DNA of 32,000 bases from Microcystis aeruginosa NIES-843. Its GTDB lineage: Bacteria > Cyanobacteriota > Cyanobacteriia > Cyanobacteriales > Microcystaceae. The notes beneath the pieces are model-generated. The model was given only the letters and a program-made list of their open reading frames with translations. It had not been told where the DNA came from and made no database searches. The stretch's first letter is position 1, and every line of letters starts with the position of its first letter. Position numbers and translations under genes: made by a program. The stretch covers positions 2,730,001-2,762,000 of the forward strand of contig NC_010296.1 in NCBI RefSeq assembly GCF_000010625.1, read 5' to 3'. Positions 1,962-4,424 of the stretch are shown here, piece after piece.

Positions 1962-4424
1962 CTAATATGGACCTAGGAATCTCTCTCCATTGAAGTGAAT
2001 CATGTGATCGGGCTGATCAGCTACCCAAACTTCTGTTTCCCAGGAAATTTCAGCAAGATAACGAGTCATTTCCCTACGACTGGGAAAAGCAGTAACAAAG
2101 ACAAGACCCTTACAGCTTAATTGAAAAAGTTGCTTTAGTTCATTGTGGCGTTTCAAATTCACTGGACCATGACTCGTCACCGCTTCTATAAGGACAAGCC
2201 AATCTTGGTATCTATGATAGATAACAAGATCAGGCATTTTCCCGTGAGGATCTAATTCAATCCCCATTTCTCGGAATTTTTGTGTTTCGTTGATTATAAA
2301 TTTATCACCAGCATCGCCAATATATAGAACTACGCCCCCTGGCGTAAATCTTGGACAAAAGCTTTCTAAGATGTCTTTAATTAAAATATTTTGCCCACCT
2401 GATGAAAGCTGAATCGCCCGACCATCGGGTAAGGTTATAGGAATCATGGGCAGATTTCGATTCCTGGCTTGCAACCAATTAGTCACTGAAAGCGCATAAT
2501 TTCTACGAGCTTCTTCCCACTGCTCAGAGCCATAAACTTGAAGCAGTGATAACGCTTGCCGATCAAGTTGGTAGCACCACCTAGGGCTATTAATTGGTCG
2601 GTCTGGTTTGTCTGGATTCTGAACCACCAGTCCCATCTGCACAAATTGATGCATTGTCTGTTTTCGAACAGTTTCGCGTGTGTTTGGTGCATATTGTTTT
2701 CCGTAATGATCACGGAACCAATCCATCATTTCTGTAATTCCGCGTTTTGGTGCAGTAGCTTGGCTCCAGGGTTTATCAGGTTGAATATCTGCTAACGCAA
2801 GTAAGCATAGTGCAGACCTTTCATTCTGTTGCGCTCTAGGAGCAGAGATAGCCTTGAGAATTGTCAGTGCTTCTTCGATTCGTTTGTTTGCTTGAACTGC
2901 GGCACTTGCTTCATCCATAATTGATAGAACTTCATGTACAACTTGATCGATTTCTTCTTGGTTTAAGTCATTGTCCCCAACTTGAACTCCTATTTGGATT
3001 AAGTCATTTTTACATGGATACTTAACCCTACGAAGGTCGGTAGCATTGACTTGTGTATTTCCACTAAATTGACGAAAGTAGCTATCAAATAAAGTTGAAT
3101 TAAGAAATGCGGCTAACCCTTTAGCTACATCAGGAGGCATTCCTCTGCCTTTAGCATGATAATAATTAAGATGATTTTCGACACCTAGAGATTTTGAACC
3201 AATAGGAGAACACACAGCAGCAACAACACGACGCTTTTCTTCTTTGGATGAAAAACGTTTTGTCAAAACATACCAGCCAGGCTCAATTAACCATTTTTCT
3301 GTTTCGTTATTTTTTTCTACCGCAATGGGCTTGCGGGGATTATCAGGAGGAAACACTACTTTCCTTACTTTTACAGATTCTGGATAAAGTAGGGGAACAG
3401 TTCTATCACTCAAATGGTTTCTTAAAGACGATTTCAGGCGAAAATCAACAACTGGACCTGTGGAAACTTCTAAGCCTATCTCATCCAATGTACAGGGCAT
3501 TTTATTCATTTGAACTCTCAAGGAATTCTTGAGAGAATTTGTAACAATATGAATAAACTGTTCAGAATCATTCGGCTCAATCACTTCGTCATAGGGGGTA
3601 TATCTAGATTCTGAAATCTCGTCTAATGCCATCTCAGAATTACTGGTTATTTTTACAGTGCTAGGTTTTTGTTTAGATCTTAGGGCGTGAAAAATAATAT
3701 TTTCCTGTAATACCTCATCTTCTGAGAAGGTTGCTGATCTACTCTCAAATATATGGATTTTATCTAGTTTCATATATTCTAGGAAGGCTTTTCGGAAAGG
3801 GCGAAAATACTTGCCATTGCAAAAACTTCTCGGCGTAATCGCAACCACTTCGCCATCGTCTATAAGTTGTACGATGGCAAGCCAAACAAATGCGCTGTAG
3901 AGATTTACAGTATCAATCCCAATACTTGCAAGAACTTTCTTTTCTGCTGATTGGCTGTGAATCTTCTTATAAGGTGGATTCAGAATCGCATGAGTAAAGC
4001 CTGGAACTACCTTCTTAAAGAGTGGCAAGTTCATTTCACTACTAGCTTTGATGAAATTCTCCCCCCGCAAGCAATAATCTGCTTGAATTCCTTTTCCGTT
4101 CAAAGCGGCACAGCATTCTGTGAGGGTTTGATTTAGCGAGGGGAAGAAGACTGGTTCGACTTCATATGCTGTAATGCTGCAACTACTAACCTGATCGGGG
4201 TTTGCCAGTAACCGCTCTACTACAGCAGCAGTTAAAGTTCCAATTCCAGCCCCAGCATCTAGAAGGTGAATATGACCAGACAGGTTGTTGAATTGTCCTG
4301 CCATGAAACGCGCAACAGTTGCGGGGGTCAAGAACTGACCCAACTGACTACGCTGTTTCAAGTTCAATCTTGAAGAGTAGTAGACTCTGGCTATATCAGC
4401 AGAATCAGTAAGGAACGTTGCCAT
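1962..4424 (-). CDS. Single-chain restriction-modification enzyme: gamma-class N6-adenine DNA methyltransferase (Eco57I/TaqI-like) fused to a PstI/BsuBI-family restriction endonuclease
   Basis: The N-terminal part has GQFLTP, motif I [11 protein letters not shown] (aa 54-64) and motif IV NPPY (aa 149-152). The C-terminal 306 aa (nt 1962-2882) carry strings I recognise from PstI/BsuBI nucleases: [80 protein letters not shown]. The 820 codons form one uninterrupted frame. Confidence 0.85.
   Translation of the reverse strand: [820 protein letters not shown]

Follow-up and report, generated by a model that had tools for sequence, protein, structure and literature searches.

Type IIP restriction-modification systems face the problem that the nuclease must not act before the chromosome is methylated, against which controller proteins, promoter timing, and translational coupling are the recognised safeguards. 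The stretch analysed here, 32,000 nucleotides of Microcystis aeruginosa NIES-843 DNA (the window), raises the question of how cleavage could be restrained when an N6-adenine methyltransferase (M) and a PstI/BsuBI-type nuclease (R) are encoded as one polypeptide. We conclude that the gene probably specifies a self-contained, single-chain type II restriction-modification enzyme that is an in-frame fusion of an M-then-R operon, with CTGCAG as its likely target.

A methyltransferase and a nuclease in one reading frame

The preliminary description of this DNA had proposed a single continuous 820-aa polypeptide with a gamma-class N6-adenine methyltransferase at its N-terminus and a complete PstI/BsuBI-family nuclease at its C-terminus. 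The ORF listing gives one minus-strand frame that runs for 820 aa from an ATG start with no internal stops, and all of the sequence strings cited in that description are found, including those of aa 54-64, NPPY at aa 149-152, and the junction. The parts of the gene are these:

1962..4424, minus strand: whole M-R fusion ORF, from the ORF listing and three Pfam domains; stop codon at 1962-1964
2925..4424, minus strand: predicted monomeric gamma-class N6-adenine DNA methyltransferase with its own target-recognition domain (TRD), aa 1-500, from homology and fold search
4233..4265, minus strand: AdoMet-binding motif I, aa 54-64, from conservation in 43 fused proteins
3969..3980, minus strand: catalytic motif IV, NPPY, aa 149-152, from conservation in the same 43 proteins
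2484..2885, minus strand: winged-helix DNA-recognition domain BsuBI_PstI_RE_N, aa 514-647 (Pfam, 4.9e-55)
1983..2444, minus strand: PD-(D/E)XK catalytic domain BsuBI_PstI_RE, aa 661-814 (Pfam, 3.6e-63)
2229-2231, 2184-2186, and 2148-2150, minus strand: predicted catalytic residues D732, E747, and R759, matching SdaI D233, E248, and R260
2313-2315, minus strand: conserved D704, invariant in the 43 fused proteins

Motifs X (GQFLTP, aa ~29-34), I (LLDAGAGIG, aa 54-62), and IV (NPPY) follow one another in that order. Conservation was assessed in an alignment of 43 fused proteins with 33-94% identity (24 of them cyanobacterial, the query included), among which the motif X positions, G60 and G62 of motif I, and N149, P150, P151, and Y152 of motif IV are invariant, and conservation is at least 90% at D56 and G58. 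Pfam places an Eco57I methylase domain at aa 138-228 (3.6e-10), the PADLOC MTase_II model PDLC03227 spans aa 7-503, and Alw26I-type and BREX PglX methyltransferases are weak profile matches to the fusion protein. When the PDB was searched by sequence with the M half there was no match at E <= 1, and relatives there were identified only by a fold search with an AF2 model, in which the M half, including its TRD-containing fold, resembles CamA, M.BseCI, and M.TaqI (TM up to 0.74). Motif order and modelled fold identify the N-terminal ~500 aa as a complete monomeric gamma-class N6-adenine methyltransferase with predicted activity.

The winged-helix domain (PF17728) covers profile positions 2-135 of 140 and aligns to residues 13 to ~145 of SdaI, and the catalytic domain (PF06616) matches its full profile (positions 1-154 of 154), with scores of 186 and 212 bits, respectively. 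In the SdaI crystal structure 2ixs, residues 13-321 are matched by aa 515-820 of the fusion (E = 4.9e-77), and the fold search with the AF2 model likewise returns an SdaI-like C-terminus (E = 1.5e-30). D704, P731-D732, E747, and R759 are invariant in the 43 fused proteins. The SdaI active site comprises D233, E248, K251, and R260, with R260 the more important basic residue (PMC3045609). T750 stands at the position of K251, the EXXK lysine, and because most members, fused or stand-alone, have threonine there, as does the biochemically active EcoGIII-type nuclease, K251 is not family-defining. By profile and structural alignment aa 514-820 form a complete BsuBI/PstI/SdaI-type nuclease with predicted activity, and both domains proposed in the preliminary description are therefore present in one chain.

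The junction and the split relatives

Two further features mark the meeting point of the halves:

2880..2933, minus strand: junction, aa 498-515, equivalent to the C-terminal end of M and the N-terminal start of R in split systems, from relatives and the AF2 model
2916-2918, minus strand: Met503 codon, within the junction

The AF2 model predicts the junction to be helical, with no extra domain, and the claim that neither stop nor frameshift interrupts it is upheld by the continuous ORF and by intact orthologues in independent genomes. The classical PstI and BsuBI systems had been described as having separate M and R genes, and two genes are what both related systems examined here have, the closest stand-alone relative and EcoGIII. 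In the first, the genes for a 502-aa M and a 322-aa R overlap by 11 nt, and the two proteins are 44% and 53% identical to the respective halves; EcoGIII of Stx phages has an M of 489 aa and an R of 317 aa with a 4-nt overlap, at 45% identity over aa 7-493 (492 aa aligned) and 53% over aa 513-820. These split relatives share the M-then-R order of the fusion. EcoGIII, a BsuBI/PstI-type system of the Stx2a-converting phages of EHEC, methylates CTGCm6AG at 98.8-100% of CTGCAG sites, and its nuclease is biochemically active and cleaves CTGCAG. The fusion appears to have arisen by in-frame joining of such a head-to-tail, BsuBI/EcoGIII-like operon in which M overlaps R.

The fusion is a real departure from the two-gene layout, as had been noted, but it is not a rare one. 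Besides cyanobacteria, Chloroflexota, and Acidobacteriota, other groups are represented among the 209 species genomes that carry it, and it occurs in at least 20 clusters at the 50% level. The same architecture is shared by at least 120 full-length homologues (71-100% identity), and in 49 species-representative genomes of cyanobacteria a close orthologue is preserved intact as one frame. A REBASE-derived PADLOC model matches the fusion end to end. Fused and split forms are interleaved in a neighbour-joining tree, which suggests repeated fusion or fission within the family, although the tree carries no bootstrap support, some 'stand-alone' entries may be fragments, and the events are not counted precisely. 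The fusion is common in sequence databases, and we found no description of it in the literature, nor any biochemical or methylome data for it or any fused homologue. Database names conflict (methyltransferase only, endonuclease only, or 'AplI'), and surveys of restriction-modification systems would as a result misclassify the family as solitary M or solitary R.

The junction also bears on whether one product is made or two. Internal initiation at Met503 could yield a free ~36-kDa nuclease beside a full-length chain that acts mainly as methyltransferase; Met503 would then be the old R start codon, and the system would resemble a classical two-protein PstI-type one. A methionine lies in the junction segment of 38 of the 43 fused proteins, aligned with the start of stand-alone R genes. 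In the 24 aligned cyanobacterial proteins, the query among them, it is invariant as S-I/V-M, that of other clades aligns exactly with the stand-alone R start (SMGKIQEAQ vs MGKLEESQ), and R of the split relatives begins at the equivalent place. Nonetheless, five of the 43 proteins lack this methionine, which where retained may be a mere vestige, and at least 49 species and 20 or more deep clusters have kept one frame, which would be needless if free R sufficed. The Met503 codon (AGTTGTACATGAAGTTCTATCAATT-ATG) has no Shine-Dalgarno-like run of purines in front of it, but this does not discriminate, because the annotated start is also without one. We regard two products as unlikely, and a single bifunctional chain as the better account.

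Target site and genomic setting

The reading-head segments of the nuclease are nearly identical to those of the CTGCAG-specific EcoGIII-type R and unlike those of SdaI, and the predicted target is most probably CTGCAG. Because the 32-kb window alone is too small for palindrome statistics (15 of 64 palindromes are absent from it), site avoidance was assessed in pooled loci with a background control. CTGCAG occurs four times in the 49 intact carrier loci, where 197 are expected, and 36 times in unselected cyanobacterial loci, where 202 are expected. Among loci of at least 8 kb, 2/42 carriers hold the site versus 13/39 in the background, a difference with the lowest p value of all 64 palindromes (Fisher p = 0.0012, or about 0.08 when corrected for 64 tests). 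Eight CTGCAG sites are present in the one locus whose copy is frameshifted and truncated, and other avoided palindromes number 0-1 there. The site is avoided about 5-fold in cyanobacteria in general, and Microcystis hemA loci without the gene show none where 24 are expected. As GCATGC and GTCGAC are also wholly absent from carrier loci, and given the corrected Fisher value, we take CTGCAG avoidance to be supportive but not decisive. CTGCAG is only mildly depleted (O/E 0.6) in the loci of distant fused homologues with 46-50% identity, and specificity may differ across the family.

Could the protein be a bifunctional fusion that reads another site, for example the related palindrome ATGCAT or the extended site CCTGCAGG? 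The characterised CTGCAG system is no more than 45-53% identical, SdaI of the same family reportedly recognises the 8-bp CCTGCAGG, ATGCAT is extremely rare in M. aeruginosa NIES-843, and the avoidance of CTGCAG is, as noted, general in cyanobacteria. Cyanobacteria do have AvaIII, but an AvaIII/NsiI-like ATGCAT specificity was rejected as the best guess, since ATGCAT is plentiful in many carrier loci (4-8 sites per ~20 kb; pooled O/E about 0.5) and the reading head is of the CTGCAG type. An 8-bp site would cover 1/16 of CTGCAG sites and would not explain a 20- to 50-fold depletion; furthermore, CTGCAG gives the most significant carrier-versus-background difference, and PstI and BsuBI share one specificity at a similar level of identity. 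Another target is accordingly improbable, and CTGCAG remains our preferred assignment.

The surroundings of the gene contain two additional features:

4456..6342, minus strand: IS607-like element, with a serine-recombinase tnpA and a tnpB carrying an in-frame stop (Pfam Resolvase, OrfB_IS605, and Cas12f1-like_TNB)
1899..1920, minus strand: terminator-like hairpin, ~40 nt after the stop codon, a consensus match only

The IS607-like element is inserted 31 nt upstream of the fusion ATG and separates the gene from hemA; it is absent from two other loci, where the gene directly follows hemA, and it is outside the restriction-modification system. Site counts in a promoter and terminator scan of positions 1300-6700 were no higher than in shuffled sequence. 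Genomic contexts vary between genomes, and clustering of 784 flanking ORFs from 64 loci revealed no conserved neighbour gene (the best family is present at 7/64 loci), ruling out a conserved partner such as a second methyltransferase, a C protein, or Vsr. No controller (C) protein or separate partner methyltransferase was found beside the gene at the 64 loci, nor a second homologous methyltransferase within +/-10 kb. The gene is present in 4 of 16 Microcystis hemA contigs, and GmrSD_N+HEPN or BrnT/A cassettes lie at the same spot elsewhere; the Microcystis gene occupies a variable defence hotspot beside hemA.

These data also address whether the nuclease is dead, such that the protein would be a solitary methyltransferase keeping its PstI-type module as a DNA-binding or regulatory domain. 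T750 in place of the SdaI lysine is consistent with this, JGI and PADLOC call the family methyltransferase only, and several Nostocales have ORFs of 634-708 aa that keep the methyltransferase and winged helix but have lost the catalytic domain, showing that a protein of this composition is tolerated. We consider it very unlikely, because threonine at that position is shared with the active EcoGIII-type R, the basic residue that matters more in SdaI is kept as R759, and D704, D732, E747, and R759 are invariant down to 33% identity, which disposes of the loss of catalytic residues that had been named as a way for the preliminary description to fail. In addition, all 154 positions of the catalytic-domain profile are matched, CTGCAG avoidance is strongest in carriers of intact copies, and the gene fills a slot otherwise taken by defence cassettes. 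Lastly, the idea that mistakes in sequencing or assembly joined two genes into one apparent frame is refuted by independent assemblies: split relatives with overlapping stop and start codons do exist, but the identical 820-aa protein belongs to a 212-member cluster from independent assemblies, complete genomes included (BAG02819.1 of M. aeruginosa is among its deposited proteins), orthologues are intact in the 49 species genomes, and fused forms are seen in other phyla at 33-50% identity.

Possible restraint of cleavage and comparison with known systems

From general knowledge of monomeric gamma-methyltransferases and of SdaI and type IIC nucleases, we infer how a single-chain enzyme of this kind could be kept in check. 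The M half would make CTGCm6AG and the R half would cut unmethylated CTGCAG in incoming DNA; since each half brings its own reader, one palindromic site would be served by two independent DNA readers. The gene would behave as an accessory, horizontally mobile defence gene that acts without a partner gene. First, the nuclease domain would be made only after its own methyltransferase domain and in a fixed 1:1 ratio, as a limit case of the translational coupling in split operons. Second, the methyltransferase would act as a monomer, and cutting both strands would require a pair of nucleases, each with one active site, on the palindrome, so methylation should be favoured at low protein concentration. 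Third, both domains of one chain would compete for the same site, and fourth, the host genomes would offer very few CTGCAG sites.

It is possible, although we put this forward tentatively and would not yet call it probable, that PstI-family systems have repeatedly collapsed into single-chain enzymes with a full M and a full R, in which fusion itself acts as the control device. The partner methyltransferase would be gamma-N6A or, independently, m5C; M-before-R synthesis, competition in cis, and the 1:1 ratio would take the place of controller proteins; and the system would move between genomes as a single gene. If true, these enzymes would constitute a distinct and unrecognised type IIC subclass that cuts within its site. 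A natural, widespread, and repeatedly evolved fusion of complete M and complete R would then be another answer to the problem of safe entry, and would widen type IIC beyond the pattern of an N-terminal nuclease, a shared reader, and cleavage at a distance. If the enzyme is a PstI isoschizomer, transformation of Microcystis and of many filamentous cyanobacteria would also meet a predictable obstacle, one that pre-methylation of CTGCAG or vectors lacking PstI sites could circumvent.

The preliminary description had likened the protein to a type IIC enzyme built from a type IIP nuclease, and a chain combining both domains, with predicted activities, is what we find. Nuclease and methyltransferase share one chain in the 820-aa ORF and in at least 49 species, as in type IIC. 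The order is M then R, not the N-terminal nuclease followed by a gamma-methyltransferase of type IIG, and in place of one shared specificity module the M half is equipped with a TRD and the R half with a winged helix; because the two halves have separate DNA readers, the protein is not type IIG in the usual sense. As judged from its sequence, the fusion is a functional-looking, single-gene type IIC system whose architecture lies outside standard descriptions.

Several known systems share parts of this design. BsuBI and PstI, the founding members of PF06616/PF17728, are both two-gene systems (head-to-tail in BsuBI, divergently transcribed in PstI), and the fusion nuclease is likened to them through the family profiles. 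M.PstI, a monomeric gamma-methyltransferase for CTGCAG, is of the same class as the M half. EcoGIII has the same two protein families, M then R, and a near-identical winged-helix reading head, but it consists of two genes and is phage-borne in E. coli, whereas the fusion is one frame and chromosomal in Microcystis. SdaI has the two-domain layout of the R half and the conserved D233, E248, and R260, but it is stand-alone, with K251 where the fusion has T750 and with a different reading head.

Classical type IIC/IIG enzymes (MmeI, BpuSI, Eco57I, and type IIB) likewise join a gamma-class NPPY methyltransferase to R in one chain, and BpuSI shows weak fold similarity to the fusion. These classical enzymes have an N-terminal nuclease and a shared specificity module, in contrast to M then R with two readers, and they cut 10-20 bp from mostly asymmetric sites (2014 review), whereas the nuclease family of the fusion cuts inside its palindrome. 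BtgZI, whose methyltransferase is N-terminal and whose PD-(D/E)XK nuclease is C-terminal (the one such type IIC enzyme named in the 2014 review), is set apart by its description, with an alpha-class methyltransferase, the asymmetric site GCGATG 10/14, and distant cleavage. The engineered type IIP fusion RM.Eco29kI kept both specificities, was viable without a separate M, and restricted phage 100-fold, and the Eco29kI paper pointed to head-to-tail systems of the BsuBI type as candidate sources of natural fusions. RM.Eco29kI is artificial, R-then-M, and built from a GIY-YIG nuclease and an m5C methyltransferase, whereas the Microcystis fusion is natural, conserved, and widespread.

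The fused frame and its descent from a two-gene operon

As the preliminary description had proposed, the methyltransferase (M) and the restriction nuclease (R) are encoded in one continuous frame, and all of the strings that it quoted are present at their given positions, NPPY at aa 149-152 and the junction among them.

Features of the M-R fusion gene
1962..4424, minus strand: M-R fusion ORF, 820 aa, ATG start, uninterrupted
aa 138-228: Eco57I-type methylase segment (Pfam)
aa 514-647: BsuBI/PstI nuclease-family domain 1 (Pfam, 4.9e-55, whole profile length)
aa 661-814: BsuBI/PstI nuclease-family domain 2 (Pfam, 3.6e-63, whole profile length)

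The identification of the two parts as an N6-adenine methyltransferase and a PstI/BsuBI-type nuclease is supported by these Pfam matches, by end-to-end alignment of the final 306 residues with the SdaI crystal-structure sequence (2ixs, E = 4.9e-77), and by a fold search with an AlphaFold2 model based on 43 fused homologues, which is confident (mean pLDDT 85.4, pTM 0.71). The motif order in the M half is that of the gamma class, from motif X (GQFLTP) through motif I (LLDAGAGIG) to motif IV (NPPY). The first ~500 residues of the model match CamA, M.BseCI, and M.TaqI (TM up to 0.74), monomeric gamma-class N6-adenine methyltransferases with their own target-recognition domain (TRD), and the C-terminus matches SdaI; no solved structure spanning both halves was found in this search. 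The junction (aa ~498-515) is modeled as short, helical, and without an extra domain, and the single chain comprises a complete methyltransferase, TRD included, followed by a complete nuclease that reads DNA through a winged helix.

Relatives of both halves are encoded elsewhere by separate genes. The closest stand-alone nuclease, P0122, is 53% identical, and its gene lies directly 3' of, and overlaps by 11 nt, that of a 502-aa Eco57I-type methyltransferase with 44% identity to aa 10-498 of the fusion protein. A split arrangement is also found in 97 phage-genome records, mostly of Stx2a-converting phages, in which the M and R genes overlap by 4 nt and encode proteins of 489 and 317 aa (the R annotated as 'BsuBI') that are 45% and 53% identical to the respective halves. 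From these overlapping relatives, whose gene order is the M-then-R order of the fusion, we infer that the 820-aa protein arose when the two genes of a head-to-tail M->R operon fused in frame. Natural fusions of this kind, with BsuBI among the candidates, were predicted in a 2011 paper describing an artificial fusion of Eco29kI R and M.

A methionine is present at the junction in 38 of the 43 fused proteins, and the start methionine of stand-alone R aligns with it in several clades; we read it as a probable vestige of the former R start codon. Its conservation could instead reflect internal initiation at Met503 to yield a free nuclease of ~36 kDa, but this is unlikely. Met503 has no Shine-Dalgarno-like sequence before it; the annotated start likewise lacks one, and the absence does not discriminate. 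When 1.84 billion representative proteins were searched with the nuclease half, 2712 relatives emerged; within the best 150, at least 20 clusters (50% level) are proteins of 780-886 aa with a C-terminal nuclease, down to 38% identity, intermixed with stand-alone forms of 310-340 aa. Beyond the cyanobacteria, full-length fused relatives are also found in Chloroflexota, Acidobacteriota, Myxococcota, and Clostridia. Fused and split forms are also interleaved in a neighbor-joining tree of the nuclease domain, with at least 16 state changes; this is a rough tree without bootstrap support, in which some 'split' entries are possibly fragments, and we draw from it no more than that fusion or fission has probably been recurrent in the nuclease family. 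A second, independent kind of fusion has an m5C (Dcm-type, PF00145) methyltransferase N-terminal to a BsuBI/PstI nuclease of the same family (P0206, 683 aa; P0216, 694 aa; also P0227 and P0263), and these proteins form a separate clade in the nuclease tree.

Target site

The fusion protein probably recognizes CTGCAG. In EHEC methylomes, m6A is found at 98.8-100% of CTGCAG sites only with the cassette of EcoGIII, the two-gene BsuBI/PstI-type system of the Stx phages, present, and the winged-helix reading head of the fusion protein is nearly identical to that of the EcoGIII-type R in both segments (17 and 12 letters); the SdaI reading head is unlike it (YATGSREDFRKKTLRQW ... NPDNLNIATNSQ). Site statistics agree with CTGCAG without being decisive.

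CTGCAG sites in loci with and without the fusion gene
49 intact carrier loci, 865 kb: observed 4, expected 197, O/E 0.02
64 unselected cyanobacterial hemA loci, 762 kb: observed 36, expected 202, O/E 0.18
12 Microcystis hemA loci without the fusion gene, 161 kb: observed 0, expected 24, O/E 0.0

Among loci of at least 8 kb, a CTGCAG site is held by 2 of 42 carriers and 13 of 39 background loci; the Fisher p value for CTGCAG between carriers and background (0.0012) is the lowest of the 64 six-base palindromes, and is ~0.08 after correction. GCATGC and GTCGAC have no sites in the carrier loci. The sole CTGCAG-rich carrier locus, from a Leptolyngbyaceae MAG (L059), has 8 sites in 12.5 kb and 0-1 of the other avoided palindromes, and its fused gene (L059:5008-7018) has a frameshift near aa 540 and is cut short at aa 671; this pairing of a broken copy with many sites is a single case, suggestive of a CTGCAG target. 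Near distant homologues (46-50% identity) CTGCAG is only mildly depleted (O/E 0.6), and the wider family may therefore not be uniform in specificity. For the fusion protein itself, a specificity other than CTGCAG is improbable.

ATGCAT was also considered as a target, and is disfavored by an O/E of ~0.5 in carriers and by the 4-8 sites in many carrier loci. According to the NIES-843 genome paper, ATGCAT occurs once per 216 kb in that genome. The sole ATGCAT of the 32-kb window (at 2649) lies inside the fusion gene, and Microcystis loci with the fusion gene have exactly one each, which hints that the gene came from outside and that its ATGCAT site has not yet been purged. Palindromes are avoided to an extreme degree in the window, from which 15 of the 64 six-base palindromes are absent; CGATCG is five-fold over-represented there (26 observed, where base composition predicts 5.1), as fits the HIP1-type repeats of cyanobacteria.

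Catalytic centers, distribution, and genomic setting

Alignment of the nuclease catalytic residues, a check proposed in the preliminary description, was made against SdaI, whose active site is reported to comprise D233, E248, and K251 (an EXXK variant) together with R260, which matters more than the lysine (PMC3045609). The equivalents are D732, E747, T750, and R759, with the aspartate, glutamate, and arginine kept and threonine at the K251 position. This substitution is not a sign of decay, as most fused members, and likewise most stand-alone ones, have threonine at that column, and it is present in the EcoGIII-type nuclease, which is reported to be biochemically active. Residues G60/G62, N149-P150-P151-Y152, D704, P731-D732, E747, and R759 are invariant in the 43 fused proteins (33-94% identity to the NIES-843 protein), a pattern indicating that both catalytic centers are under purifying selection in the fused state.

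In Nostocales (Anabaena, Aphanizomenon, Sphaerospermopsis), several ORFs of 634-708 aa stop just past the winged-helix domain, keeping the methyltransferase and DNA reader with the nuclease catalytic domain gone (L056:944-2950, L057:10001-12007, L058, L077, L054, L069, and L062); these look like naturally disarmed derivatives en route to orphan methyltransferases. Such copies illustrate that disarmed forms do arise, but the invariance of the catalytic residues makes it very unlikely that the nuclease half of the full-length protein is dead and retained as a DNA-binding module.

The fusion gene is real and widespread, and it looks functional. Relatives are present in 209 genomes in a scan of one genome per species, and an intact close orthologue in a single frame was found at 49 cyanobacterial loci among those examined; the three-domain architecture is common to at least 120 full-length homologues at 71-100% identity. 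The identical protein falls in a cluster of 212 members, some of them deposited Microcystis aeruginosa proteins (BAG02819.1, for example), and the window is 99% identical to Microcystis sp. T1-4. A sequencing or assembly error behind the continuous frame is effectively excluded by the identical deposited proteins and intact orthologues.

When 784 flanking ORFs from 64 loci were clustered, no conserved neighbor family was found in more than 7 loci, and the best-shared family (7 loci) reflects local synteny inside one genus; no second homologous methyltransferase was found within +/-10 kb of the fusion gene, which is a stand-alone unit without a partner gene. Of 16 metagenomic hemA contigs from Microcystis, 4 carry the fusion gene, which is placed immediately downstream of hemA. 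In other contigs this slot, compared with window 1977-6371, holds either a GmrSD_N (DUF262) and RiboL-PSP/MAE_28990-type HEPN pair or a BrnT toxin with a presumed BrnA antitoxin (L091:11558-13495; L098:10218-11198). The slot is a variable defense/toxin-antitoxin hotspot, which fits a defense role for the fusion gene.

Features flanking the fusion gene in the window
4456-6342, minus strand: IS607-like element, 1.9 kb, between hemA and the fusion gene
5670-6263, minus strand: serine-recombinase tnpA of the element, overlapping tnpB
5273-5710 and 4460-5221, minus strand: tnpB ORFs of the element, with a single in-frame stop at 5273-5275
900-1370, plus strand: 156-aa ORF matching only positions 1-82 of the 204-position Peptidase_C15 (pyroglutamyl-peptidase) profile

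The IS607-like element is an insertion relative to L008 (Microcystis sp. T1-4) and L089, in which the R-M gene adjoins hemA; it stops 31 nt before the fusion-gene ATG and so may affect its transcription. The 156-aa ORF may be truncated or divergent, and homology with other Microcystis loci ends between it and the R-M gene.

Proposed working and relation to known systems

We propose that the M half would modify the CTGCAG adenine on both strands as a monomer, as M.TaqI and M.PstI act, and that the nuclease half would cut unmethylated sites of incoming DNA, with CTGCA^G as the cut expected of a PstI-type enzyme. Several features could restrain cleavage. In each chain the nuclease domain would be made after the methyltransferase domain and at a fixed 1:1 ratio, which takes to its limit the translational coupling that the 4-nt and 11-nt overlaps of the split operons suggest. 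With one nuclease active site per chain, pairing on the palindrome would be needed for a double-strand cut, as a 2014 type II review proposes for type IIC enzymes generally, and cutting would then be expected to rise more steeply with concentration than methylation. Both readers of a chain would compete for the same 6-bp site, and the sites in need of protection would be very few in carrier genomes. The Eco29kI fusion, an engineered one, was viable and restricted phage 100-fold, showing that such a single-chain arrangement can be viable yet restricting.

The fusion is already in databases, under inconsistent names. The search for fused homologues that had been suggested found them, and a REBASE-derived PADLOC model (PDLC03359, 840 positions, labeled only 'Type II methyltransferase', MTase_II) matches aa 7-820 end to end. 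NCBI names the family 'BsuBI/PstI family type II restriction endonuclease' or 'Eco57I ... methylase domain-containing protein', JGI uses 'adenine-specific DNA-methyltransferase', and one Microcystis record has 'type-2 restriction enzyme AplI'. The fusion thus exposes a systematic annotation inconsistency, and R-M censuses would count it as M alone or R alone; our literature search found no paper describing or testing the M-R fusion. Fusions are common among R-M genes, and since this one was also predicted, it holds little surprise for specialists; it does provide a clean natural test of whether fusing replaces regulatory control.

By its domain content the protein falls within the literal type IIC definition (R and M in one chain), in agreement with the earlier view of a type IIC-like enzyme built from a type IIP nuclease. 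Most type IIC enzymes have an N-terminal PD-(D/E)XK nuclease followed by a gamma-methyltransferase, use one specificity module for their activities, and cleave away from the site, with BtgZI the sole named exception with M->R order (2014 type II review). The fusion protein shares that order with BtgZI, whose own M, however, is alpha-class, whose site is asymmetric, and whose cleavage is distant. It departs from the usual type IIG enzymes in two defining features, domain order and shared reader, and its nuclease belongs to the PstI family, which cuts inside the palindrome. It is best described as a type IIC system of one gene, with M before R and two readers, derived from a PstI-type type IIP system.
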